Shown here: in pieces, positions 27,686-39,204 of the stretch | Position numbering within the stretch: the first letter of the stretch is position 1 | Layout: each line of letters opens with the position of its first letter | Assembly (NCBI GenBank): GCA_965199495.1 | Contig: CBDASK010000003.1 | Location: 480,001-544,000, forward strand | DNA: 64,000 nucleotides | Source: Abditibacterium sp. | Lineage (GTDB): Bacteria > Armatimonadota > Abditibacteriia > Abditibacteriales > Abditibacteriaceae | Direction of reading: 5' to 3' | Made by a program: the position numbers and the translations under genes | Notes under the pieces: model-generated | What the model saw: only the letters and a program-made list of their open reading frames with translations | Told to the model about the DNA's origin: nothing | Databases searched by the model: none

Positions 27686-27847
27686 AAATTTTACTTTGCT
27701 TCACTTTAGCAGAAAATCACTTTTTTGGCCTTCCTCAATTCGGAAAATCAAAAGACTGCCGGCATAACACGGAGGTAAACTTTTGGATTCCGAGCGATCA
27801 CAGAATTTTTGCAGGTTGCAATCCAAAGGAATCGGAAGCCAAATACA

Positions 27848-28612
27848 ATGAACAAAGATCAGAATCAGGATTACTCCGTTGTCGAACGCGCACTCGAAGA
27901 ATTGGAATTTTTGAACGCGACGGATGAACAGATTCGACAACTCCAAGAACAGCAAAAGCAGCGCAAAGCCGATATGATCGTGGAACTAAGCCAAAAGTTG
28001 AAGCAAGTTCCTCTGGAACAGGCCAATGTTGTAGCGTCGAACGCATACTGGGCCGACCCAAAACTAGCGGATGCGGTGAGAAAAGCCTATCTTTCTGGAA
28101 CAAATCGTGGATTTGTTCCACTCTCGATGCCCACAGAAATTGCTTGTGAGCGTTGCGGTAACTTGATCACGGCGACGAGTTGGACAAATTATAAAGACAT
28201 CGTGAGTCGTGCCGAACACCGTGAGAAAGAAGCAGCGTATCGTTGGGGCGAACAACTTTGTCTGTCTTGCGCCGAAGCGAAACGCGCTAAAAGAGACGAA
28301 GAAAGCGCAGCTTACTTTGATTGTTGGGAGGAAGAATGCGAAGCCGCCGAACGCGAACGAGAGCAGAGAGAAGCCGAACTCCAACAAATGTCCGGCGATG
28401 AGTATTTTCAAACCGAACACTGGCAACTTCTCGCCCAGGCGGTCGTGAAAAAAGCGGGATACCGTTGCCAATTGTGCAATACAGGCGGAATTCTCAACGT
28501 TCACCTCCACACTCAAGAAGTCCGTGGTCGTGAGTCGCTGGCGGACTTAGTTGTCTTGTGCCAACAATGCTCCGGCTCTTATCAGTTGATCGAGGAAATA
28601 CGAAAATCTTAG
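27848..28612 (+). CDS. Zn-finger/HNH endonuclease-like protein
   Basis: CERC and CLSC pairs; C-terminal YFQTEHW...CQLC...LNVHLH...GRE...LVVLCQQC. Confidence 0.65.
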   Translation: MNKDQNQDYSVVERALEELEFLNATDEQIRQLQEQQKQRKADMIVELSQKLKQVPLEQANVVASNAYWADPKLADAVRKAYLSGTNRGFVPLSMPTEIACERCGNLITATSWTNYKDIVSRAEHREKEAAYRWGEQLCLSCAEAKRAKRDEESAAYFDCWEEECEAAEREREQREAELQQMSGDEYFQTEHWQLLAQAVVKKAGYRCQLCNTGGILNVHLHTQEVRGRESLADLVVLCQQCSGSYQLIEEIRKS

Positions 28613-28726: not shown

Positions 28727-31312
28727 ATGCCAAGTTGGAAATCTTCATCGCAGTTCAGAACAGTATTCAACGAGTTACAAGCGTTGGAGGGATATGATTT
28801 CGTCCAAAAAATTCAACCACTGCTTATTCTGGTGCAGTCACAAGTAAATTCTGAAAGTAGTTTCGAGACTAAGACAGTTCCTGTTGAAAAATCAGGTGCC
28901 TTCGTTTTGTTTGGCCAAGCTGATGACTTAATGTTATCCTCGTCTGCTCTGAAGCAGACAGCGAGGAATGTCCCAGGAGACAAAAGCATTCACTCTGAAC
29001 CTTTGTTTCAGTTGGTTCAATGTCACGGTTTCATATCAGGTAACACTCAAGTCGGCGATGCTCAATCCCTTGAATGTCAACGTGCCACAGAAATTTTTTT
29101 GCAAAGCGGACTGCATGTTCAAAACTATGTTTTTGTTTACAATCGGCGAGAAAAGAATTCCACTTTCCGAGAATCAATAGAAAGTATTGGCAACTCGTTA
29201 GTTGAATCAGGTCGAGTCGATACGTTTCAGATTTGGAATTTGACTGATTTACTGGAACGATTGTGCGATGTATTTTTGTCTCGTTTATCAGAATTTGCAC
29301 AAAAATATGCGCCATCAACTTTGGCAGCCGATACGATACACGCTTATGAACCGTTGAAGAGAGTGCCTTTATCTGTATCAACCATATCTGTTGATGCTCA
29401 CTCGTTGCACTCTGACTCAGAAAAATTTGTTCACCAAGGTCTACTTGATCCAGTAGAAGAATTACTCAAAGGCAGAATTACGAATTACTCTGTGCTTCTT
29501 GGTGAGTTTGGTTTTGGTAAAACAACGGCAGCACTTCGTGCAAGCGCGCAACAGGAAACCCCTGTCTTCTTCGTATCAGGCGCCAGCCTAAATCTGAATG
29601 AGGTAAGCTCCAAAAATTTACTGTTACAGTGTGTCAATGAAGATGCATTAGCAGAAGAGTTTATTGACATCGATCAATCGCTTTTAAAACCTCTTTTGAA
29701 AGTTGTCGTCGAAAAATACTTTATCGCAGAGAAATGCCACGCTGTCCTGTTGTTCGATGCCATTGATGAAGCTCCACTACTCAACCGTAAAGGAGGGCTT
29801 CAAACTTTCTTTCAGCTACTGGCTCAAGTTCGGTGCCGCATACTTATGACGGTGCGAAGCGAGTTTTGGGATGTTCATAGAGCAGACTTTGAAATAGCCT
29901 TTGGTTCGGCCTCTGTTTCGGGACGAGGAACCCATAATCTTAAGCATCATAGTCTCATCCGTCTATTGCCGTGGTCGAACGTCGAAATTGCCCGACTTAT
30001 AAAGCGTCACCGAGATTCCTTAGAGGCTGAAGACGAAAAGGCACGTCTTCAAACGTTGCTTGAACTGGTAGAAAAAGGGCAATACGAGCAATTTTACGGC
30101 GATATTCCTCGGCGCCCATTGTTTCTTCAATGTATTTTGCAATCGGTGGAAGCACAAGGGGTTCAGCTAACTGGGCGGGTGCGTCTATTGGACAGATGGT
30201 GCCGCTTAAAAATACTGCGAGATACTCGTAATCCACAACGTTTCAATTCTACAGAAAGAATTCCGCTTTCTGATGACATCACAACTATGGAGGAAACAAT
30301 CAGCCTTGCTCTACTTGTGATGGAAAAAGCAGCACATTTAATGACACAAGAGAAAGATGGTGAAGTCGAGCTTCTTCCATTCTGCGATGCGAGAGAATTA
30401 CGTTCAATTGAACCTCAGTTCGACCGAATTACTAATTCTGGCTTAGTGCTAAACAGTTTGCTTTTACCGGTATCTCCCCGACTGCCAGGGACACCGCTCC
30501 GTCTACGGTTCGCACATCGCGCCTTCCAAGAATTCTTCCTTGCACGATTTCTCCTTAACGAGGGATACTCCCTCAACACGCCACTTCCGACAACAGTGCA
30601 AGAGTGGATGGAAGATTTGCGAACTTTGAATGAAGAAAATTTCGAGTTCTCAACGAATAAAGCCCGAATCGTTAAACCGATGTCTTTAACATCAACATTG
30701 GCAACTCAGAACATGGTTACAATTTTATTTCTTGCTTCCAATCCCGATGATGGTTCTGGAGGAGCATTAAAATTAGATGCAGAGTGCCGCTCAATAGACC
30801 AGCGTTTGCGCGCCAGCAAACATAGGGAAAGATTTGACTTGCGCTCTCAGTGGGCGGTGCGGGTAAATGATTTACAGAATGCACTTCTTGAGTATTCTCC
30901 AACTATCGTGCATTTTAGTGGGCACGGAAATTCGTCCGGTCAAATTATTTTGCAAGACGATACCGAAAGGTCTTTTCCAGTTTCGCAGCAATCGCTCAGT
31001 GAACTTTTCCAAATTCTTTCCCAAGAAGTGCGTTGCGTCGTCCTCAACGCCTGTTACTCTGAAGACCAAGCTCGCGCAATTGCTGATCATATCGACTGCG
31101 TCGTAGGTGTTCCTAACGAAATTGATGACACTGCGGCCATTAGCTTTTCTGCTGCTTTCTACCAAGCTCTCGGATATGGGTGCAGCGTTCAACAGGCTTT
31201 TGAATTGGGATGTAACTCTATTGGCCTTAGCGGACACGATGCCTCCCAAAGTCCTAAATTACTTACCCGTCGCGGCGTAGATGCTTCTAAAGTAGTTTTG
31301 ATTGACAATTGA
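28727..31312 (+). CDS. NACHT/STAND NTPase with C-terminal CHAT (caspase-like) protease
   Basis: Walker A GEFGFGKTT, Walker B LLFDAIDE, RPLFL and FAHRAFQEFF; CHAT motifs ILFLASNP, HFSGHG and VLNACYS. Confidence 0.85.
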   Translation: MPSWKSSSQFRTVFNELQALEGYDFVQKIQPLLILVQSQVNSESSFETKTVPVEKSGAFVLFGQADDLMLSSSALKQTARNVPGDKSIHSEPLFQLVQCHGFISGNTQVGDAQSLECQRATEIFLQSGLHVQNYVFVYNRREKNSTFRESIESIGNSLVESGRVDTFQIWNLTDLLERLCDVFLSRLSEFAQKYAPSTLAADTIHAYEPLKRVPLSVSTISVDAHSLHSDSEKFVHQGLLDPVEELLKGRITNYSVLLGEFGFGKTTAALRASAQQETPVFFVSGASLNLNEVSSKNLLLQCVNEDALAEEFIDIDQSLLKPLLKVVVEKYFIAEKCHAVLLFDAIDEAPLLNRKGGLQTFFQLLAQVRCRILMTVRSEFWDVHRADFEIAFGSASVSGRGTHNLKHHSLIRLLPWSNVEIARLIKRHRDSLEAEDEKARLQTLLELVEKGQYEQFYGDIPRRPLFLQCILQSVEAQGVQLTGRVRLLDRWCRLKILRDTRNPQRFNSTERIPLSDDITTMEETISLALLVMEKAAHLMTQEKDGEVELLPFCDARELRSIEPQFDRITNSGLVLNSLLLPVSPRLPGTPLRLRFAHRAFQEFFLARFLLNEGYSLNTPLPTTVQEWMEDLRTLNEENFEFSTNKARIVKPMSLTSTLATQNMVTILFLASNPDDGSGGALKLDAECRSIDQRLRASKHRERFDLRSQWAVRVNDLQNALLEYSPTIVHFSGHGNSSGQIILQDDTERSFPVSQQSLSELFQILSQEVRCVVLNACYSEDQARAIADHIDCVVGVPNEIDDTAAISFSAAFYQALGYGCSVQQAFELGCNSIGLSGHDASQSPKLLTRRGVDASKVVLIDN

Positions 31313-31392: not shown

Positions 31393-32046
31393 TTATCGGT
31401 AGCTTGTTAGTCCCAGACAGTCCAGGTTTTGAGCCACCTCATCATTTTCAATGAGAGAGGGATCACATTGAAACATATCCACCCAATTTTTGAGTTCGGC
31501 TGGATGCCAGTGACTGTTTTTCTCAGTCGGCTCTTCAGCTAACTTATTGACAAGCTGAATGCCATCTTTACAAACGGCCATATACCCCAATTCTATACCG
31601 AAGAGGAGAGCCAGTAACCCTAACAGCATTTGCTTCCAAGTGACCTCAGAATGCAAGTAATATGTTCCGAAATAGAACAGGTCTATACCATGTGCTTTCC
31701 CCCATGCCCTCAAGTGACGAGTTGCTGGACTGGAGACATCCGCAACAGCCCAAACTACAGGTAGGGAGCCATCTAAGCACTCACGAGCTAACTGTAAGCC
31801 TCCTGCGTAGCCGCTTTCTTGAAAAAAGTGTTCTTCCAAGCTGGGAAATCGCACATCCATGAGAACGCCTTGCACAAAGGGTAATTGCGAACGCGCATCC
31901 TGAATCGTCGATGCGTAGCGGAAACGAATGCCTTTGGGCCATGTATCTGAACCAAACGCAAGTTGAGCATCGCTAAGTGGATGCAAAGCGGGGTTTTGAA
32001 TTCGCTCATCACGAGCGACAACTAAAATTTCAAGTGGGAATTTCAT
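31393..32046 (-). CDS. Hypothetical protein with receiver-like fold
   Basis: ILVV, VLMDVRFP, GLQLAREC and LPVVW pattern reminiscent of REC domains. Confidence 0.5.
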   Translation of the reverse strand: MKFPLEILVVARDERIQNPALHPLSDAQLAFGSDTWPKGIRFRYASTIQDARSQLPFVQGVLMDVRFPSLEEHFFQESGYAGGLQLARECLDGSLPVVWAVADVSSPATRHLRAWGKAHGIDLFYFGTYYLHSEVTWKQMLLGLLALLFGIELGYMAVCKDGIQLVNKLAEEPTEKNSHWHPAELKNWVDMFQCDPSLIENDEVAQNLDCLGLTSYR

Positions 32047-32355
32047 GACACACCTCATAAAGTGGAAGTAGCGTTGATGACCAGAAATCGTCACCAACGC
32101 GCTTACACTGAGGCGACATGCCGAGCAGTAACATCCGACTCAAAAGTTACTAATTTTTGATGATACTCTTTTTTGCTAAAAAAGCAAGACTCTGGGATTT
32201 AAATCCAAACTATTTAAGTCAGCGGTAATGATGTAGTGACTTGAGAATACTGCTGTCTGTTCGGTGGACTCAAATTCAATCATACTGCCAAGAGCAAAAA
32301 ACAGAAGGCGAATTGTCTCTCAAATTGCGTTTACAGCAGCTTCTTATTGGTTTTT

Positions 32356-33243
32356 ATGCCGGAGTCAACACGCATCATTTCTATCCCCAACGTGCTGGGC
32401 GCAGATTACTCTTCTATCGAACGATTTTACGACAAGATTATTGCGGCACCCTCAGCGAAACAATACAAAATCGATCTCCATCACGTCTCCTTTATGGTGC
32501 CTTATGGAGTAGTAGCCCTTGTTAATGGCGTCCGTTTGCTCCGCAGCCGCAGCAAAAATGGAGTCGAGTTAATCAATATTCAACCCCAAGTGCATTCGTA
32601 TTTGGAGCGCGTTGACTTCTTCGCCGACGCATTCAATTCTGGCTTTTGTAAATGTGATCCTGAAAATATATGGGGGCGGAGTGGCAATAGTATGACAATT
32701 TTGGAGCTTAAACTCCTTCATGATGAAGAGACTCTTGATACGGTAACCCGACGTGCCAGAACTATATTTACAAGCCATATAGGAAAAACGGCGGGTGCCC
32801 TTGTTGTAATGGTTCTCAGCGAGTTATGCACCAACGTGTTGCTGCACAGCGGTGACTTGTTGGGCACGATTCTTATTCAGAAATGTTCTCTCCCACATGA
32901 TCCTCATTCGATCTGTGTGCGCGTTGCTGTCGGCGATTTAGGATGTGGCATCAAAACAACACTGGAGCGCAAACATTCACACTTGAATAATCCCGCGCGG
33001 GCGATCAAAGCCGCTTTTGATGGTGTTTCCAGCCGTGATTCGGAGAGAAGTGCCCTGGGATTGAGAAGCGTCGCTCAGTTGGCTGCCGAACGCGGTGGAC
33101 ATATTTGGATCAGATCAGAAAATGCAGCTTTGTTGCACAGTTCCTATTCTCCCGAACGGATTTCCAGAGTAAGTTACGTTCCAGGAACTCAAGTTGCGGT
33201 CGAATTCCACGCCCCTGTAGACGACAAGATAGTGATTGGTTGA
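32356..33243 (+). CDS. STAS plus anti-sigma-factor-type GHKL kinase (CapK-like architecture)
   Basis: N-terminal IDLHHVSFM STAS-like segment; N-box ELCTNVLLHS, G1 DLGCGI, G2 ALGL and PGTQV. Confidence 0.75.
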   Translation: MPESTRIISIPNVLGADYSSIERFYDKIIAAPSAKQYKIDLHHVSFMVPYGVVALVNGVRLLRSRSKNGVELINIQPQVHSYLERVDFFADAFNSGFCKCDPENIWGRSGNSMTILELKLLHDEETLDTVTRRARTIFTSHIGKTAGALVVMVLSELCTNVLLHSGDLLGTILIQKCSLPHDPHSICVRVAVGDLGCGIKTTLERKHSHLNNPARAIKAAFDGVSSRDSERSALGLRSVAQLAAERGGHIWIRSENAALLHSSYSPERISRVSYVPGTQVAVEFHAPVDDKIVIG

Positions 33244-33280
33244 CGCGCAGTGGCTCAAATTGTAACCTTCACTATCGGTC

Positions 33281-33299
33281 TTAACTTAACCTAAGTTAA
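33281..33299. promoter_or_regulatory. Palindromic operator candidate
   Basis: Perfect ttaactta-acc-taagttaa, 17 bp upstream of the STAS-wHTH start. Confidence 0.65.
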
Positions 33300-33316
33300 A
33301 TCTACTAAATTTCAAT

Positions 33317-33934
33317 ATGCAACATCGAGTAATGGCAGAGTTAGCGAAGTCTGCGGGACAAGACCCTCACCTTTTGTTAAGGCGACCACGCGGGCAAGCG
33401 ATCTATCCTCACATAAAAGCGGCACTGCGCGGCATTGACAAAGGGGAATTGTTGTTGCTCTCTTTTTCGGAAGATCAGGATTGCGATCCGTCGTTTGTAG
33501 ATGAAACTCTCGTTAAGTTAGCACAGCAGTTGATAAAGGGAGAATTTGGCGAGAGAGGTCTGGCACTCACCGGTCTTAACGAAGGTATCAGCTTAAGTCT
33601 GGCAAGCACTCTGACGTTGCGGCGCGATGACGCGCGCAAAAGTAAAGAAGATTTCAAAATTAATTTCTTCATATTTGACAACGCGCCTTCATCGGGCCAT
33701 TTGCCCGCAGAAGGTTGGAAAATCGCAGGTCAGTTAGAGCAGAGTTTGGAAGAGGTTCTGAATCTATTGTCGCGTAGAGAATCTTTGACCGCCGCTGATT
33801 TGGTCGAGGAACTTGGTTTAGAAATTAGTTCGGCCAGTATGCGCCTGAAGCGTTTACATGAGCGCCACTTGGTGCGGCGGCAGTATCAAACGCTCTCAAC
33901 TGGCAGAGAGTTTGTCTACAGCTTCTGGCTTTAA
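33317..33934 (+). CDS. STAS-like plus winged-HTH transcription factor (CapS-like architecture)
   Basis: LSFSEDQDCDPSFVDE (anti-anti-sigma DxS site); C-terminal LTAADLVEELGLEISSASMRLKRLHERHLVRR. Confidence 0.75.
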   Translation: MQHRVMAELAKSAGQDPHLLLRRPRGQAIYPHIKAALRGIDKGELLLLSFSEDQDCDPSFVDETLVKLAQQLIKGEFGERGLALTGLNEGISLSLASTLTLRRDDARKSKEDFKINFFIFDNAPSSGHLPAEGWKIAGQLEQSLEEVLNLLSRRESLTAADLVEELGLEISSASMRLKRLHERHLVRRQYQTLSTGREFVYSFWL

Positions 33935-33949
33935 ATTCGGCGGAACCAG

Positions 33950-34000
33950 ACTTAACCCAATCCGTGTTAAGTGTAGATTTTAGCATAAACCTAACTAAAA
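33950..34000. promoter_or_regulatory. Operator candidates upstream of the ubiquitin-like operon
   Basis: acttaac-N9-gttaagt inverted repeat, then ttttag-N11-ctaaaa; shares cttaacc and acctaa elements with the 33281 site. Confidence 0.55.
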
Positions 34001-34047
34001 CTCGCGCAGTGAAGTTACGACTGTGACACGCCCCTTCCCAATTAAAA

Positions 34048-34956
34048 ATGAAACACAAAAACGAAAAAATCGAGATTACCGTTGACGGAATCTCCTACAA
34101 AATCAGCGAAGTTGAACCGACCGGTCGAAAGATTTTCGAGACCATAGGAAAAAAGCCTGACACGTATTTGCTCTCTCTCATCGTTGCCGATGCCCCAGAC
34201 CGTTTGCATGACGCGTATGAGACGATTGACCTCAGCAATCCTGCCAATCGGCATTTCAACCTCATCGAAAAAGCGCGCCATTATGCTTTTCGGGTGGACG
34301 AGCAATCGTTGGATACGACTAACCCAAATATCACGGGCCGCGAGTTGCTGAAGATGGTGGGCAAATCTCCGCAAACGCATCAGCTTACGTTTCAGATCAT
34401 CGGCCAGTCGGATGTGTTCGTTGAGGCGGACGAATCCGCCGAATTGGAACGTTCTGGGCGCGAGCAGTTTTTCACGGTGTTGAGGAAACCGCTCACGATT
34501 ACCATTGATGGCGCCTCCTATCAACCTGGCGTCATTGAAATCAGTGGGGACAAACTGCGTCATTTGGTGACGCCGCCAATTTTCGAGACCAAGGATTTGT
34601 GGTTTGACGTGCCAGGCAAAGAAGATTTGCTGGTGAAGTCCGGTGACACCATCGCCCTCAAAGATGGCATGGCTTTTTACAGCGCAGCGCGTGCGGGACT
34701 GACGCTGACGTTCGTGGTCAACGGCGCTTCGACGGAAGTATCGGTCAAGCCCAAGGATATTCTGAGAGATGCCGCGATAGAAGCGTTAAAAGCCACCGGA
34801 AACGATCAGGGGCGCCCCATCGAAGAATGGGATTTGAAGGACAGCGACGGTGTCGTGATCGACATGAGCAGCAAAGTCGAAACGCACGGATTTACGTCCG
34901 CGACGAGGCTCTATCTCAGTCCCAAAATCGGCGCGGGAGGCAGCGATGAATTTTAA
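34048..34956 (+). CDS. bilA: Multi-ubiquitin-like protein (3 Multi_ubiq-like repeats plus DUF2604-like Ubl)
   Basis: Four ~70-85 aa beta-grasp-like units beginning ITVDG, FRVDE, ITIDG and FVVNG; C-terminus LYLSPKIGAGG-SDEF. Confidence 0.8.
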   Translation: MKHKNEKIEITVDGISYKISEVEPTGRKIFETIGKKPDTYLLSLIVADAPDRLHDAYETIDLSNPANRHFNLIEKARHYAFRVDEQSLDTTNPNITGRELLKMVGKSPQTHQLTFQIIGQSDVFVEADESAELERSGREQFFTVLRKPLTITIDGASYQPGVIEISGDKLRHLVTPPIFETKDLWFDVPGKEDLLVKSGDTIALKDGMAFYSAARAGLTLTFVVNGASTEVSVKPKDILRDAAIEALKATGNDQGRPIEEWDLKDSDGVVIDMSSKVETHGFTSATRLYLSPKIGAGGSDEF

Positions 34957-35539
34957 AGATGCAGTTGTTGACCCCGCAGTTTCGCGCGTCAAATTCGAGC
35001 GCGAAGTCGCGTTGTATCGAGAGAACAGCGACGATTACATCGCGCGCGGATGGTGGTTGGTGAAAGCGGAATTTCCACAAGTTTTGGTGATTTTCGGAAA
35101 GCCTGGTATTTCGCCCACTGTGGCGCCTATTGGTGCTTTGATTGACTTCTCCAACTACGACGCATGGCCGCCCTCAGTTCAGTTAGTGAATCCGTTCACA
35201 CAAGTGCCATTCAAAACTAACGAAGTTCCGATTCCTCCATTGATGAAGTTTCACAAGTCAGACAATCCCAACGGCCCTCAGCATGAAAATTTGCTTCAAA
35301 CGCAAGGGCCAGAAGCGATTCCGTTTATCTGCGTTCCTGGCATCCGCGAGTATCACGAGCATCCGGCTCATTCGGGAGATTCGTGGTTTGTTCATCGCAA
35401 AAGAGGCGAAGGCACTCTTTACTTTATCCTTAATTTACTCAACACATACGGCATCGGCGCCATAACAGGCTTCAGCTTCAACTTACAAATCCAAGTGGGA
35501 CTTCAAGGCCCCAATACAGTGGACGAGATACCAAGATGA
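34946..35539 (+). CDS. bilB: E2-like conjugating protein (Metal_CEHH family)
   Basis: SRVKFEREV, DFSNYDAWPPSV and FICVPGIREYHEHPAHSGDSW; overlaps the Ubl stop. Confidence 0.8.
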   Translation: MNFKDAVVDPAVSRVKFEREVALYRENSDDYIARGWWLVKAEFPQVLVIFGKPGISPTVAPIGALIDFSNYDAWPPSVQLVNPFTQVPFKTNEVPIPPLMKFHKSDNPNGPQHENLLQTQGPEAIPFICVPGIREYHEHPAHSGDSWFVHRKRGEGTLYFILNLLNTYGIGAITGFSFNLQIQVGLQGPNTVDEIPR

Positions 35540-36135
35540 CGGGACTACTTCATATTACTCGCGTGATTGTGCCGCACGACAAGGCCGAAGCCGCCCATTT
35601 GCATCTGCGTAAAATTGGGCATCAGGGTTCCGAAGCGGTGGCGCTCTGGGTTGGTGTCGTCCGCGAGAACAATTTTGAAGTGCGCGAAACCATTATTCCC
35701 AAACAGACGCCGCAACGCACGCCAACGGGCATCTTGTTCACCGTTAGCCCTCAAGAATTGCACCGCATCAATGTCTGGCTTCACGAGAACGAGATGCAAA
35801 TTATCGCGCAATTGCACAGCCATCCTCAAGAGGCTTACCACTCCGAACTGGATGATGAATTGCCGTTGGCGACGACGGTGGGCTGTTTATCTCTGGTCAT
35901 TCCAAACTTCGCCCGCGATCCTTTTTCTCTGCGCCGTTGCGCCATTTACCGGCTAATTCCCGATCAAGGCTGGACTCAACTCAGTCCCGCCGAAACCGCA
36001 CGCTTAATTACCGTAAGAGCGGAAAAGCCTGAGCAAATCTCCGATAATCAGCCTTCGTCTCGCTCCAAAACTCCGCCGCCAAAGCAACATAAAACATTAT
36101 GGGACTGGCTCCATTTTTTCAAAAAGCGGCCTTAG
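35536..36135 (+). CDS. bilC: JAB/MPN metalloprotease (deubiquitinase)
   Basis: EAVALW and HSHPQEAYHSELD JAMM motif; SLVIPNFA. Confidence 0.85.
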   Translation: MTGLLHITRVIVPHDKAEAAHLHLRKIGHQGSEAVALWVGVVRENNFEVRETIIPKQTPQRTPTGILFTVSPQELHRINVWLHENEMQIIAQLHSHPQEAYHSELDDELPLATTVGCLSLVIPNFARDPFSLRRCAIYRLIPDQGWTQLSPAETARLITVRAEKPEQISDNQPSSRSKTPPPKQHKTLWDWLHFFKKRP

Positions 36136-37652
36136 CTGGCTCACACCTACTGCGCGATTTCGAGTTCGATGCGTTCTCGCGCCTGCTCCTGGCGCAGACG
36201 GTTCGCGTCGCGTTTGATGCCGAAGCTCTTCGCTCCCGCGAAGGGTTGGTAACTCTTGAACTCACCGTCAATTTGTTGGCGCGCCTCTATCCGCGCTTGG
36301 CACTAACGCCGCTTGAGTCGGTCGAATCAGAGGTTCTTAACCGATTGATGTCGCTGGCGCGTTCGATTAATCCTGCTATTGATTTCACAACGGCAAGCGA
36401 TTCGGCGACTGTTTGTATCGTTATCGGCTCTACTCGGCTTACGGGCGAGGCGCCCACGATTTACGTTGGCTCCGACAACTGGATTACCGCACTCTCGACC
36501 TCATCTCCGGTCGGAAGTGGCGATTCCGACAACCCGTTTGGCGCCGCCGCTGCCGCTTGCTTTGGCGTCGCCAAGGTATTCCGAACGACCTTTGCCGATC
36601 AGTTGGTTGGCGTGACTTGGGAAGAAAATTGGAAGATTTCACTTCTCAATATAGATGACAGAACCGAGCTTTTCAATCCGCCTACAAAAGATGTTGATAT
36701 GGGAGAATGTCATTTGGTGGGAGTAGGTGCGATTGGCAACGCTGCCGTTTGGGCGTTGGCGCGCGCGCCATTCTTGAAGGGAACACTGCACCTAATAGAC
36801 AATGAGGAAGTTGACGATACCAATCCTCAGCGATACGTTCTCACGGGCGTTGCGGATGCGGGAACAAGCAAGGTTGTTCTGGCACAACGCGCTCTAAAAG
36901 GGTCTCAATTAGAGGTTTGTCCGCACGCGCTTTCTTGGGGAGAGTATTTGAAAGAGCGGGACAATTGGCATTTAGACCGCGTGGCTGTTGCGCTGGACAC
37001 ACCGGAAGATCGCCGCCTGGTTCAAACCGCTCTGCCTCGATGGATCGTCAATGCCTGGACGCAGCCTGATGACCTGGGGATTTCGAGGCACGGATTTGCA
37101 AATGGTCAAGCCTGTTTAATGTGCCTGTATATGCCCGAAGGAACGGTGCCCGACGTGGACGATCAGATTGTAAGTTCCCTCAATCTGCCCGATGATATGG
37201 AGACGTTACAGGCGGTGCGGCGTCTTCTGGTGACGGAAGAACCAATTGGCATGGATTGGGTTAGGCGAATTGCTACGGCGAACAAAGTAGAAATCGAACG
37301 ATTGACGGATCTACAGAATTTGCCGATACGGAGCTTTTATCAAAAAACAGTTTGTGGCGGCGTCTTACTTTCGCTTGGCGCGGATGTCGGCACAGCTCCG
37401 CGCAACACCGAAGTGCCAATGGCTTTTCAATCTGCTCTGGCCGGAATTCTTCTGGCAACCGAACTCGTCGCGCACTCCGCCGGACTGAAAAGCGACTTCA
37501 ATCATGTGACCACGAAGCTTAATTTGCTGAGACCGCTGGGATGCGATTTATCTCTTCCCGCACCTCAACATCCTTCGGGCAAATGTATATGTCAGGACGA
37601 GGATTACATCAAAGTATACGAAGACAAATATGGCGAGCGGGAGCAATTCTAA
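36099..37652 (+). CDS. bilD: E1-like activating enzyme (Prok-E2_C-like N-terminus plus ThiF)
   Basis: GVGAIG, DNEEVDDTNPQRY, Zn ligands CLMC and CIC, candidate catalytic Cys in TVCGG. Confidence 0.85.
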   Translation: MGLAPFFQKAALAGSHLLRDFEFDAFSRLLLAQTVRVAFDAEALRSREGLVTLELTVNLLARLYPRLALTPLESVESEVLNRLMSLARSINPAIDFTTASDSATVCIVIGSTRLTGEAPTIYVGSDNWITALSTSSPVGSGDSDNPFGAAAAACFGVAKVFRTTFADQLVGVTWEENWKISLLNIDDRTELFNPPTKDVDMGECHLVGVGAIGNAAVWALARAPFLKGTLHLIDNEEVDDTNPQRYVLTGVADAGTSKVVLAQRALKGSQLEVCPHALSWGEYLKERDNWHLDRVAVALDTPEDRRLVQTALPRWIVNAWTQPDDLGISRHGFANGQACLMCLYMPEGTVPDVDDQIVSSLNLPDDMETLQAVRRLLVTEEPIGMDWVRRIATANKVEIERLTDLQNLPIRSFYQKTVCGGVLLSLGADVGTAPRNTEVPMAFQSALAGILLATELVAHSAGLKSDFNHVTTKLNLLRPLGCDLSLPAPQHPSGKCICQDEDYIKVYEDKYGEREQF

Positions 37653-37653
37653 T

Positions 37654-38181
37654 CTACCCGATGAGGTGAAACAGCAGTAGAAATATAGCCAGCACGCCAA
37701 GTGGCGCCATAAGCACCTCTTCGGCCAATGATCCAGTGGTAAAGCGAAGCCTCTTTGGTAGTAAATAGAACCGATCTGCCTTGGGGTAAAGTAAACGAAT
37801 GCCGCTCTTGGTGGCTGAATCGCCAAGCAAATGACTGGCGTAGCCCAGTAATAAAGCAACGACAGGTGCCCATCCCACCCAAATCATGAGTGGAGCAACA
37901 AACACAGCCATCATGCCTAATCCCCAAAGCGAGTGCAACAATCCACGATGCTGGTTAGTGCTATGGACAACTTGTGCAGGCAAGAGAAATGGCTTAAACG
38001 TAGTGCCAGGAAATTTCAGATGTTTAATTTTCGATTCCGAAGCATCGAGATCAGGCAGAAGAGCACCCAAAGCAGCACAAGCAGCCAAGGTGCCCATGTC
38101 ATATCCGAGAACTTCTGGCGGCAACAATGAGAGCAACCAGAGCGTATTGACTCCGAGCAATGCGTGTGTAGGCCACGTCAT
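37654..38181 (-). CDS. YdjM-family membrane metal-dependent hydrolase
   Basis: MTWPTH, GALLPDLD, HRGLLHS and GYASHLLGD...GI. Confidence 0.88.
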   Translation of the reverse strand: MTWPTHALLGVNTLWLLSLLPPEVLGYDMGTLAACAALGALLPDLDASESKIKHLKFPGTTFKPFLLPAQVVHSTNQHRGLLHSLWGLGMMAVFVAPLMIWVGWAPVVALLLGYASHLLGDSATKSGIRLLYPKADRFYLLPKRLRFTTGSLAEEVLMAPLGVLAIFLLLFHLIG

Positions 38182-39204
38182 ATCACTTCCTTTTCGTTTT
38201 TGAACGGAAATTCTGCTCCGTTTATAGGCCAAAGCTGAATGTTTTTAGTCATGGCGATGAGTTATTTCCAAGTGCTTTACTCTTAAGAACCTGCGACGCG
38301 AACGCTCGCGCTAAGAACTTGAGCTATCTCGCCAACCGCCAATTGAATGCGGTAAATTAATGGTTCGAAATTACGAGGGCGCGGCCAGAATAACCGAACA
38401 AAAACCGAATATTAGTCCAATTTGCTTAATGGGATAAGTCGCGCTCGTCCTGCGTAAGTCTTATTTCTAATCTGAATAGGCGTCAAAGCCCAGTAGTCTG
38501 TGAATGGTAATCGGGCAACTCTGCAGAGTTTTTACGAAAGATTTCAGGGTATCTTTAGTGCCATCTACAGAAGGCACATTAATGCTAATATAATACGTCC
38601 GACATGACAATTGATACGGTTAAAGTTGTAAAAACCGAATCCGTAATGGAGATTAGCCTTCATCTTCTAGTTAATGGTATATTTTAGTATTATTTTCCTA
38701 AGAAGCTGTTAGCACGCTCGACTATTTTGTTGGCTTTGCGCGTGTAGGGGCGCTTTTGGCGATGCTCAATTGCGCTATTATTACATAATTGTTGAAAATC
38801 CAGACTTTTTTGCTGCCGTAGATGCCCGTGGCTTGGAGACAAACGTGAACCTTGCTTATCTCTGGCGGGGTCATTTCTGCTGAATCTAACTCGCGATTTA
38901 CTGGTGAGTATTGGGAGTGTTATCAAACCTCTTGTGGCGTGCTTTGGTAGCGTTTTGCGTGGGCAAAACAATGAATCTCAAGATGTTTTCCTTCGCAAAG
39001 CTCAGCCCTTTCTCTCTCTGGTAAGGGATTAGGGAATTCCAAATCTATGATGTTTTCCCCAATGGCTTCGCCGTTGCGCTCATTCCCGTTGTAAGCAGTG
39101 GGGGCACTCTAAGCGGTTCTTGTAGAAACTTCCTCATATAGCCGGGATTTCTGTCGAAAAGGCGGATATTTTTACAGAACTTTCACTTATTTAAACTTTT
39201 TGGT

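Follow-up and report, generated by a model that had tools for sequence, protein, structure and literature searches.

A type II BilABCD operon headed by a short CapK/CapS-type kinase-repressor pair in a low-GC stretch of an Abditibacterium genome

We examined a 64,000-nt stretch of the genome of Abditibacterium sp. (GenBank assembly GCA_965199495.1, contig CBDASK010000003.1, positions 480,001 to 544,000; hereafter, the window), focusing on a cassette of six genes in which a kinase gene and a repressor gene (here K and S) precede a bacterial ubiquitination-like (Bil) operon. An earlier note on this DNA had described six co-oriented genes, the first two coding for a STAS domain kinase and a STAS protein with a winged helix-turn-helix (wHTH) domain, and the last four for a Bil-type operon with intact catalytic motifs. 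The open reading frames (ORFs) confirmed this arrangement, with all six on the + strand between 32347 and 37652 of the window (Table 1). The Bil genes overlap each other, by 11 nt for bilA/bilB, 4 nt for bilB/bilC, and 37 nt for bilC/bilD, whereas K and S lie 73 nt apart and another 113 nt lie between S and bilA. The whole cassette lies within a stretch of low GC content (0.42 to 0.53 over ∼28 to 39 kb, versus ∼0.55 to 0.65 on either side).

Table 1. Features of the six-gene cassette and of its surroundings in the window, with amino acid identity to the related metagenome cassette L028
Feature	Position	Strand	Size	Identity to L028	Remarks
K, capK-like serine kinase	32356-33243	+	295 aa	69.5%	Counted from ATG; in-frame TTG at 32347 gives 298 aa
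Candidate capS promoter	33240-33268	+			-35 TTGACG at 33240-33245, overlapping the capK stop; 17-nt spacer; -10 TAACCT at 33263-33268
Operator candidate 1	33280-33299				K-S spacer; CTTAAC-N9-GTTAA; CTTAACTTAACCTAAGTTAA
S, capS-like repressor	33317-33934	+	205 aa	86%	
Operator candidate 2	33950-33972				S-bilA spacer; ACTTAAC-ccaatccgt-GTTAAGT
bilA, multi-domain ubiquitin-like protein	34048-34956	+	302 aa	80%	
bilB, CEHH-type E2	34946-35539	+	197 aa	75%	
bilC, JAB/JAMM deubiquitinase-type peptidase	35536-36135	+	199 aa	86%	
bilD, multidomain E1	36099-37652	+	517 aa	80%	
YdjM-family membrane hydrolase gene	37654-38232	-		77.5%	Convergent with bilD, 1-nt gap
HNH-like protein gene	27809-28612	+	267 aa		C-terminal HNH-like Cys cluster
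STAND/CHAT-type candidate immune gene	28727-31312	+	861 aa		P-loop GEFGFGKTT mid-protein; C-terminal CHAT protease domain
ORF divergent from K	31393-32097	-	234 aa		

Judging from gene order and catalytic residues, genes three to six are a complete type II BilABCD (CEHH/6C) operon, and the Bil-type assignment of the earlier note was borne out by matches to solved E1 and E2 structures. The order of the genes, ubiquitin-like protein (Ubl), CEHH/E2, JAB deubiquitinase (DUB), and multidomain E1, is the order by which type II BilABCD operons have been defined (10.1101/2023.09.26.559546). Residues 1 to 513 of BilD matched the E1(BilD) of Ensifer aridi (PDB 8tyz_A; E = 5.2e-149) in a full-length alignment with ∼60% identity by eye, BilB matched the corresponding E2(BilB) (8tyz_C; E = 5.4e-41), and BilA matched BilA and multi-ubiquitin structures (8u38, 4e-19; 8tyx/8tyz, 1.7e-8). 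Pfam returned Multi_ubiq (5e-19) and DUF2604 (2e-15) for BilA, Metal_CEHH (4e-47) for BilB, Prok-JAB (4.4e-6) for BilC, and Prok-E2_C plus ThiF for BilD. The Prok-E2_C stretch at the N terminus of BilD is the inactive adenylation domain of the E1, going by the description of the solved structure (10.1101/2023.09.26.559546), and the E2 of the operon is the CEHH protein BilB, which the note had correctly called E2-like. A check with PADLOC succeeded in part: BilC (3.7e-17) and BilD (3.6e-19) were matched, no model matched K, BilA, or BilB, and S had only weak wHTH matches (E of 0.002 or worse).

The catalytic motifs were confirmed by alignment to the key residues given for E. aridi (E2 C138/E144/H146/H151, E1 catalytic C417, and zinc cysteines 340/343/491/493; 10.1101/2023.09.26.559546) and by reading of the motifs. 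BilB C129/E135/H137/H142 stand opposite the four CEHH residues, BilD C419 stands opposite C417, and the zinc cysteines of BilD are at 339/342/496/498. An E1 of this type is built of an inactive and an active adenylation domain with an inserted CYS domain that holds the catalytic Cys, and BilD shows the same makeup by alignment. BilC carries the motif H94-S-H96-x6-S103-x2-D106. In type II systems, the DUB takes off as many as nine residues that trail a conserved C-terminal Gly of the Ubl (10.1101/2023.09.26.559546), and BilA ends in ...GAGG-SDEF, with the GG at 297-298. The operon shares with that of E. aridi, known from structures 8tyz and 8tz0, its gene order, the full-length E1 alignment, the four CEHH residues, a JAB peptidase, and a Ubl with Gly and a short tail. 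It differs in its BilA, which is a 302-aa multi-domain Ubl rather than the single beta-grasp domain described for E. aridi; multi-domain BilA proteins have been described for other type II operons (10.1101/2023.09.26.559546). The same source reports CapH/CapP as regulators of 25 of 162 operons, whereas the regulator in the window is of the CapK/CapS type.

The earlier note likened the regulator pair to CapK/CapS. This is a real published system, named "controller of associated/adjacent pathways" (Chambers, Rani, Min, Villa, Corbett, EMBO J 2026, PMC13373217). In the portions of that paper on which we draw, CapK is a helix-turn-helix (HTH)-STAS-GHKL kinase and CapS, with crystal structures 9z71 to 9z73, is a STAS-wHTH repressor. 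Single-stranded DNA (ssDNA) made during DNA repair activates CapK, which then phosphorylates CapS at Ser54; the CapS dimer then falls apart, and capS and the downstream operon are de-repressed. Chromatin immunoprecipitation (ChIP) peaks of CapS lie on both sides of capS: in the spacer that follows capK, where the TTAA half-sites are 1 bp apart, and downstream, where they are 10 bp apart. The downstream site controls the cargo. The same paper describes the phosphorylated Ser (S54/S58), on helix 2 of the CapS STAS domain, as absolutely conserved, implicates the conserved CapK W68 in ssDNA sensing by stacking, identifies the active-site Asn (N218 in E. roggenkampii), names N145, K151, G169, and G170 as DNA-contact residues of CapS, and reports that deletion of the CapK HTH has no effect, the ΔHTH protein behaving as wild type (PMC13373217).

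On the evidence of PDB matches and profile alignments, the window K and S are remote homologues of CapK and CapS. For S, the top PDB matches were the CapS structures 9z72 and 9z71 (phmmer, 3.6e-5 and 1.8e-3), and a 10-sequence S profile reached them at 9.7e-10 and 3.6e-7. Pfam called MarR_2 (E = 3.2e-6), with a MarR-type wHTH at residues 146 to 189, and both the N-terminal STAS domain and the C-terminal wHTH domain are colinear with the CapS structures. A plasmid tblastn search with S (E ≤ 10) reached a Vibrio gigantis plasmid locus that we used as the canonical pair. Its genes run type I restriction-modification, a 361-aa "ATP-binding protein," a 183-aa HTH protein, a YdjM-like gene, HNH-SAVED, and CD-NTase. 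The 183-aa protein agrees with the aligned stretches of 9z72 except for a Ser where the crystal construct has Ala, and it was because of this agreement, the type I restriction-modification genes upstream, and the CD-NTase/SAVED operon downstream that we took the pair as canonical. Alignment of the S family to the Vibrio CapS with hhalign (probability, 97.4%; E = 1.5e-11) put S59 opposite S58. PDB numbering of CapS runs two ahead of the numbering in the paper, an offset derived from N145, K151, and G169-170, and with it S59, in D57-P58-S59-F60, is the counterpart of the phosphorylated CapS Ser54/Ser58. All 20 aligned members of the S family carry D57, S59, and F60, in keeping with the proposal of the note that the Ser of DCDPSF is the phospho-acceptor.

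For K, Pfam gave HATPase_c (E = 2.4e-6) and a weak STAS_2 match under the Pfam cut-off (E = 1.2e-3). The STAS domain was recognized more clearly in the K homologues P0090 and P0148, which matched STAS/STAS_2 at 1.9e-7 and 1.5e-5, and in the alignment of the K family to the 361-aa Vibrio CapK-type protein (hhalign probability, 96%; E = 3.6e-9; 252 columns, K 38-289 versus 79-358), which spans both the STAS and the GHKL parts. In 298-aa numbering, N163 is invariant in 30 of 30 homologues and stands opposite the SELvGN box of Vibrio CapK, and D197, G199, and G201 show little or no variation. K has thus kept both the N-box Asn and the DxGxG box. A PDB sequence search with K returned nothing meaningful, the best match being a capsid protein at E = 0.33. 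Homologues of K are labelled "anti-sigma regulatory factor (Ser/Thr protein kinase)" in their source records.

The Vibrio kinase has ∼55 additional N-terminal residues, which we read as a wHTH domain, whereas an N-terminal HTH was found in none of the 30 aligned K homologues. In the K ORF, the first strand conserved in the family is preceded by 13 residues, and the ORF lies downstream of a 250-nt non-coding gap. A word-based search recovered 60 K homologues, all of ∼280 to 310 aa and nearly all of 280 to 300 aa. An exhaustive profile search recovered 181 cluster representatives at E ≤ 1e-30 and 4,373 at E ≤ 1e-3, and the latter figure may take in VapK-like and housekeeping kinases; with few exceptions, the top 150 were 280 to 310 aa long. 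The HTH-less state of K is a family trait and not a truncation. Two homologues with long N-terminal extensions (P0093 and P0146) were considered as HTH-bearing intermediates and rejected, as Pfam found no HTH in either and they look like over-called starts. The same genome holds a second, distant K paralogue (G000:C3:3409967-3410755; L027 6836-7786), which matches the family profile at E = 5.8e-27. It has no CapS-like neighbor and no recognizable immune genes at its site, and lies between genes for a TPR protein and a metallo-beta-lactamase-fold protein, a few kb from uvrB.

We predicted the complex of K with residues 1 to 128 of S and ATP, using our own alignments. The score was 0.87, compared with 0.00 for the best of three controls; 116 of 157 solved complexes attain this value, as do 2 of 215 mismatched pairs, a calibration that is only rough here because our own alignments were used and the ligand was included. 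The runs agreed in at least 92% of contacts, with a partner pLDDT (predicted local distance difference test) of at least 87, and placed S residues 55 to 59 against the N-box helix of K (154 to 162) and against K 226 to 245. Complexes of SpoIIAB with SpoIIAA have already been solved. For that reason, the score may reflect likeness to that interface and not binding by this copy of the pair.

Two candidate operators flank capS. Allowing at most one mismatch, CTTAAC-N9-GTTAA occurs only at these two sites in the window, giving four matches over both strands where 0.50 (standard deviation, 0.80) were expected; none of 100 shuffles reached four. By sequence, both the places of the sites and the TTAA within their half-sites correspond to the published ChIP peaks and half-sites. 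The core palindrome of operator 1 is TTAACTTA-acc-TAAGTTAA, which also holds the published narrow form TTAAcTTAA. Upstream of it, overlapping the end of K, lies what may be the capS promoter (Table 1). Between S and bilA, we found no terminator-like site. Two further AT-rich palindromes, TCAAAAGTTAcTAATTTTTGA and GGATTTAAATCC, occur at 32140-32160 and 32193-32204 in the 250-nt gap before K; we did not count them in the system, as they are not kept in the related locus described below, where the upstream region is unalignable.

When metagenomes were scanned with the S alignment, 12 loci were recovered, one of which, L028, carries the whole six-gene cassette (Table 1). K is its least conserved protein relative to the window (69.5% identity, versus 75 to 86% for the other five). 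The arms of operator 1 are kept in L028 and its central 3 nt differ; for operator 2, the arms and left flank are kept, with a partly variable spacer. Upstream of operator 1, L028 also keeps the TTGAC(G/A) and TTGTAACCTTCACTA blocks. The DNA upstream of K does not align between the two loci. BilD had no match in 40 relatives of the Abditibacterium genome, 12 of them of the same genus, with a genome completeness of 63 to 100%.

To place the pair among its relatives, we scanned species genomes with the K alignment and obtained 24 loci, mostly from Chloroflexota and Nostocales, with one from a Rhizobium metagenome-assembled genome. An S homologue adjoined K in 19 of the 24, as it does in the window, and immune-type cargo was recognizable after S in 12 of these 19, which associates the regulator pair with immune cargo. 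The cargoes were of the CBASS (antiphage signaling based on cyclic oligonucleotides) type in four loci (L002, L003, L006, and L021), pPIWI-RE in two (L004 and L019), E2/E1/JAB operons in six (L001, L014, L015, L017, L018, and L020), large proteins with no family or only ResIII in another six (L005, L008 to L011, and L016), and a SWIM/DUF5691 pair in one (L023). The large-protein cargo recurs as a pair of very large proteins (∼1,160 to 1,280 and ∼760 to 780 aa) with no Pfam family or a weak ResIII match. Bil genes were found at none of the 24 loci. No S homologue was present at the remaining five: L007 (DUF4178 genes), L022 (a 1.9-kb contig), and three Chloroflexota loci (L012, L013, and L024) in which the kinase adjoins the pentose-phosphate genes for 6-phosphogluconolactonase and glucose-6-phosphate dehydrogenase, after an ORF of 272 to 279 aa. 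This last sub-branch of the kinase looks like one in housekeeping use.

The distant K-S loci also carry a readable palindrome. Of 29 such loci, 28 have TTCA[CT]-N9-[AG]TGAA, which has the same geometry as the window sites, where S begins (25 within the range searched and 3 just inside S ORF starts that had been called too early), and L037 has no such palindrome. Over 412 kb of loci, 29 of 32 + strand matches to this motif fall where an S gene begins. Operator 1 occupies the position of the TTCAC-N9-GTGAA palindrome in these loci, where a TTGACA...TATAAT-like promoter runs from the K stop codon and the palindrome follows ∼10 to 12 nt after the -10; the layout in the window is identical. The half-site of the window and L028 is one base off the rest (TTAAC versus TTCAC), and in the recognition helix of their S proteins two residues before the conserved RLKRL are changed (SSASM versus N[ST]A[SN]N).

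The published catalogue (PMC13373217, Dataset EV2) lists 443 BLAST-defined capKS loci, of which 5 precede "Ub-6C/Bil" operons. By text search, the stems Calothrix, Nostoc, Anabaena, Chloroflex, Anaerolin, and Caldilin do not occur in Dataset EV2, so the clade of short kinases seems to be uncaptured by that dataset.

The window pair agrees with published CapK/CapS in that a STAS plus GHKL Ser kinase lies directly upstream of a STAS-wHTH repressor, the pair heads an immune operon, the phospho-serine is kept, and TTAA-containing palindromes occur in both published places. A second comparison is with VapK, an HTH-less relative in the three-gene VapKSC toxin-antitoxin locus, with 289 published sequences, in which Phe replaces the Trp but which is still predicted to bind ssDNA (PMC13373217). 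K resembles VapK as a STAS plus GHKL kinase lacking an HTH. The partner S, on the other hand, has a wHTH domain in place of a short antitoxin tail, no VapC/PIN gene is present in the cassette, and the cargo would be an operon under transcriptional control. With SpoIIAB/SpoIIAA and RsbW/RsbV, the pair shares a GHKL kinase that would act on a Ser at the start of STAS helix 2 and a predicted interface of the same type. It differs in three ways: its presumed substrate, S, is a DNA-binding repressor in its own right, a sigma factor plays no part, and K has a STAS domain of its own.

Taken together, we consider it probable, at roughly 0.85, that the locus is a horizontally acquired cassette in which a type II BilABCD conjugation system is placed under a CapK/CapS-type phospho-switch. 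In the resting cell, dimeric S would sit on the two TTAAC/GTTAA palindromes, one after its own promoter and the other before bilA, and hold S and Bil expression low. A signal, which in the published system is ssDNA from DNA repair, would activate K, which would bind monomeric S and phosphorylate Ser59 on the second helix of the STAS domain. Phosphorylation would break the S dimer and release the DNA, allowing S and BilABCD to be transcribed. BilC would then trim SDEF off BilA to expose Gly298, and BilD would adenylate BilA and take it up as a thioester on Cys419, from which it would pass to Cys129 of BilB and on to target lysines. Every biochemical step in this scheme, together with the nature of the signal, is drawn by homology from the published system. 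In the type I Bil system that has been studied, the target of conjugation is a phage tail protein.

It is important to note that several observations weigh against this reading. K and S are only ∼24 to 25% identical to the canonical Vibrio proteins, and tblastn of K against plasmids reached only a Nostoc linckia plasmid and not the canonical CapK. K lacks the N-terminal HTH of the published CapK definition and is shorter (∼295 aa, versus the 361 aa of the Vibrio protein). No residue of K clearly corresponds to W68; the alignments of the first ∼37 residues disagree, and an aromatic pair, F27-Y28, lies nearby. Among the four DNA-contact residues of CapS, two are kept in S (K151 as K178 and G170 as G196), and N145 and G169 are replaced by Ser172 and Thr195; more distant members of the clade have an Asn one position earlier than the counterpart of N145. 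The TTAA cores are 11 bp apart at both operators, so that both sites are wide, whereas one published site is narrow (1 bp) and the other wide (10 bp). A consensus promoter scan called no sigma-70-like promoter in the three relevant spacers, which include K-S and S-bilA, and the -35 and -10 that we assigned match 8 of 12 consensus positions only. Finally, a putative -10 before bilA is not kept in L028, so that Bil may owe its transcription to read-through from the capS promoter.

One alternative leaves the architecture intact and supposes that the input to K is not repair ssDNA but, for instance, a component of the phage or some other cue of stress. The lack of an HTH, the uncertain fate of the ssDNA-stacking Trp, and the variability of K are in its favor: the first ∼40 residues (window 32356-32480) are the most variable of the protein, with 40 to 60% identity to the three closest homologues, compared with 80 to 90% around the N-box, and so fast-evolving a kinase leaves room for a different input signal. 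Nevertheless, VapK is also HTH-less and is predicted to bind ssDNA through a Phe, the F27-Y28 pair of K lies close to the position that aligns with the Trp, CapK without its HTH behaves as the wild type in the published work, and we obtained no positive evidence for another ligand of K. A different input signal is possible but, on balance, unlikely. We find it much harder to credit that K and S regulate only themselves and that Bil is constitutively expressed from its own promoter, with adjacency reflecting co-transfer. Such independence would fit the 113-nt spacer before bilA, given that in most of the distant relatives the cargo directly follows S, and it would also fit a spacer in which no promoter or terminator could be confidently called. 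Against it, that same spacer holds the second operator copy, kept in L028, there is no terminator-like site to part S from bilA, and in the published system it is the site downstream of capS that controls the cargo.

Least probable of all, and only barely credible to us, is that K and S form an ordinary anti-sigma/anti-anti-sigma pair of the RsbW/RsbV or SpoIIAB/SpoIIAA type, which controls a sigma factor and has nothing to do with Bil. The pair shares its fold family with these systems (STAS plus GHKL Ser kinase), the source records carry the anti-sigma label, the second paralogue in this genome stands without an S partner or recognizable immune genes, and 3 of the 24 surveyed kinases (L012, L013, and L024) sit beside pentose-phosphate genes with no S. 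Against it, S has a wHTH DNA-binding domain and finds its best structural relatives in the CapS structures, no sigma factor gene adjoins the cassette, and K/S travels with Bil genes in L028 and heads diverse immune operons elsewhere. A CapK/CapS-type switch in front of BilABCD remains our preferred reading of the locus.

A bolder extension of this reading is that the HTH-less kinase of ∼290 aa and its STAS-wHTH partner make up a separate and very large branch of CapK/CapS. This branch would have its own operator code, TTCAC-N9-GTGAA, with the window sub-branch shifted to TTAAC-N9-GTTAA as N[ST]A[SN]N-RLKRL became SSASM-RLKRL, and its kinase N terminus would read a signal other than ssDNA (e.g., a phage product), which would make it an infection sensor rather than a DNA damage sensor. 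Taken as a whole, this proposal is speculative, and we regard it as doubtful.

The surroundings of the cassette hold further genes of interest. Just upstream, in the same low-GC island, the 861-aa protein (Table 1) matched Pfam CHAT (9e-8) and the PADLOC models SAVED_CHAT (3.5e-13) and chat (7.8e-13), and the gene, a STAND/CHAT-type candidate immune gene, is absent from L028. The 267-aa protein has no Pfam family and a weak PADLOC match to ZorE (E = 3.6e-4); the 234-aa protein encoded divergently from K has no Pfam family and no match at all. As described for type II Bil operons (10.1101/2023.09.26.559546), the operon lies within an island that holds other defense-type genes. On the other side, the YdjM-family gene is also kept beside the L028 cassette (L028 12344-12874), and in the canonical Vibrio locus the annotated cargo after CapS opens with a short YdjM-like gene (L040 7784-8152), which may be coincidence. 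We rejected YdjM as a member of the system, as a tblastn search with the window protein (E ≤ 1e-3) hit L028 and none of the remaining loci compared. A tRNA scan and an Rfam scan at gathering thresholds returned nothing in the window.

The proposed switch mechanism and its pairing with Bil are essentially already published (PMC13373217), and our findings leave the published mechanism unchanged. What is new here is modest: a short, HTH-less, remote branch of the switch with a readable operator code, of which this cassette is one example. All six genes can be named with confidence, as those of a capK-like kinase, a capS-like repressor, and bilABCD, and with this cassette the capKS-Bil examples rise to six, the new one coming from a lineage that is not on the list in Dataset EV2. 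In Chloroflexota and Nostocales, the clade of short kinases heads CBASS, pPIWI-RE, and E2/E1/JAB operons, as well as operons of large proteins of no recognized family; its operator is directly readable from the genomes. In the sub-branch of the window, each half-site differs by one base and the recognition helix differs with it, and this paired change offers a test case for how such repressors choose their DNA.

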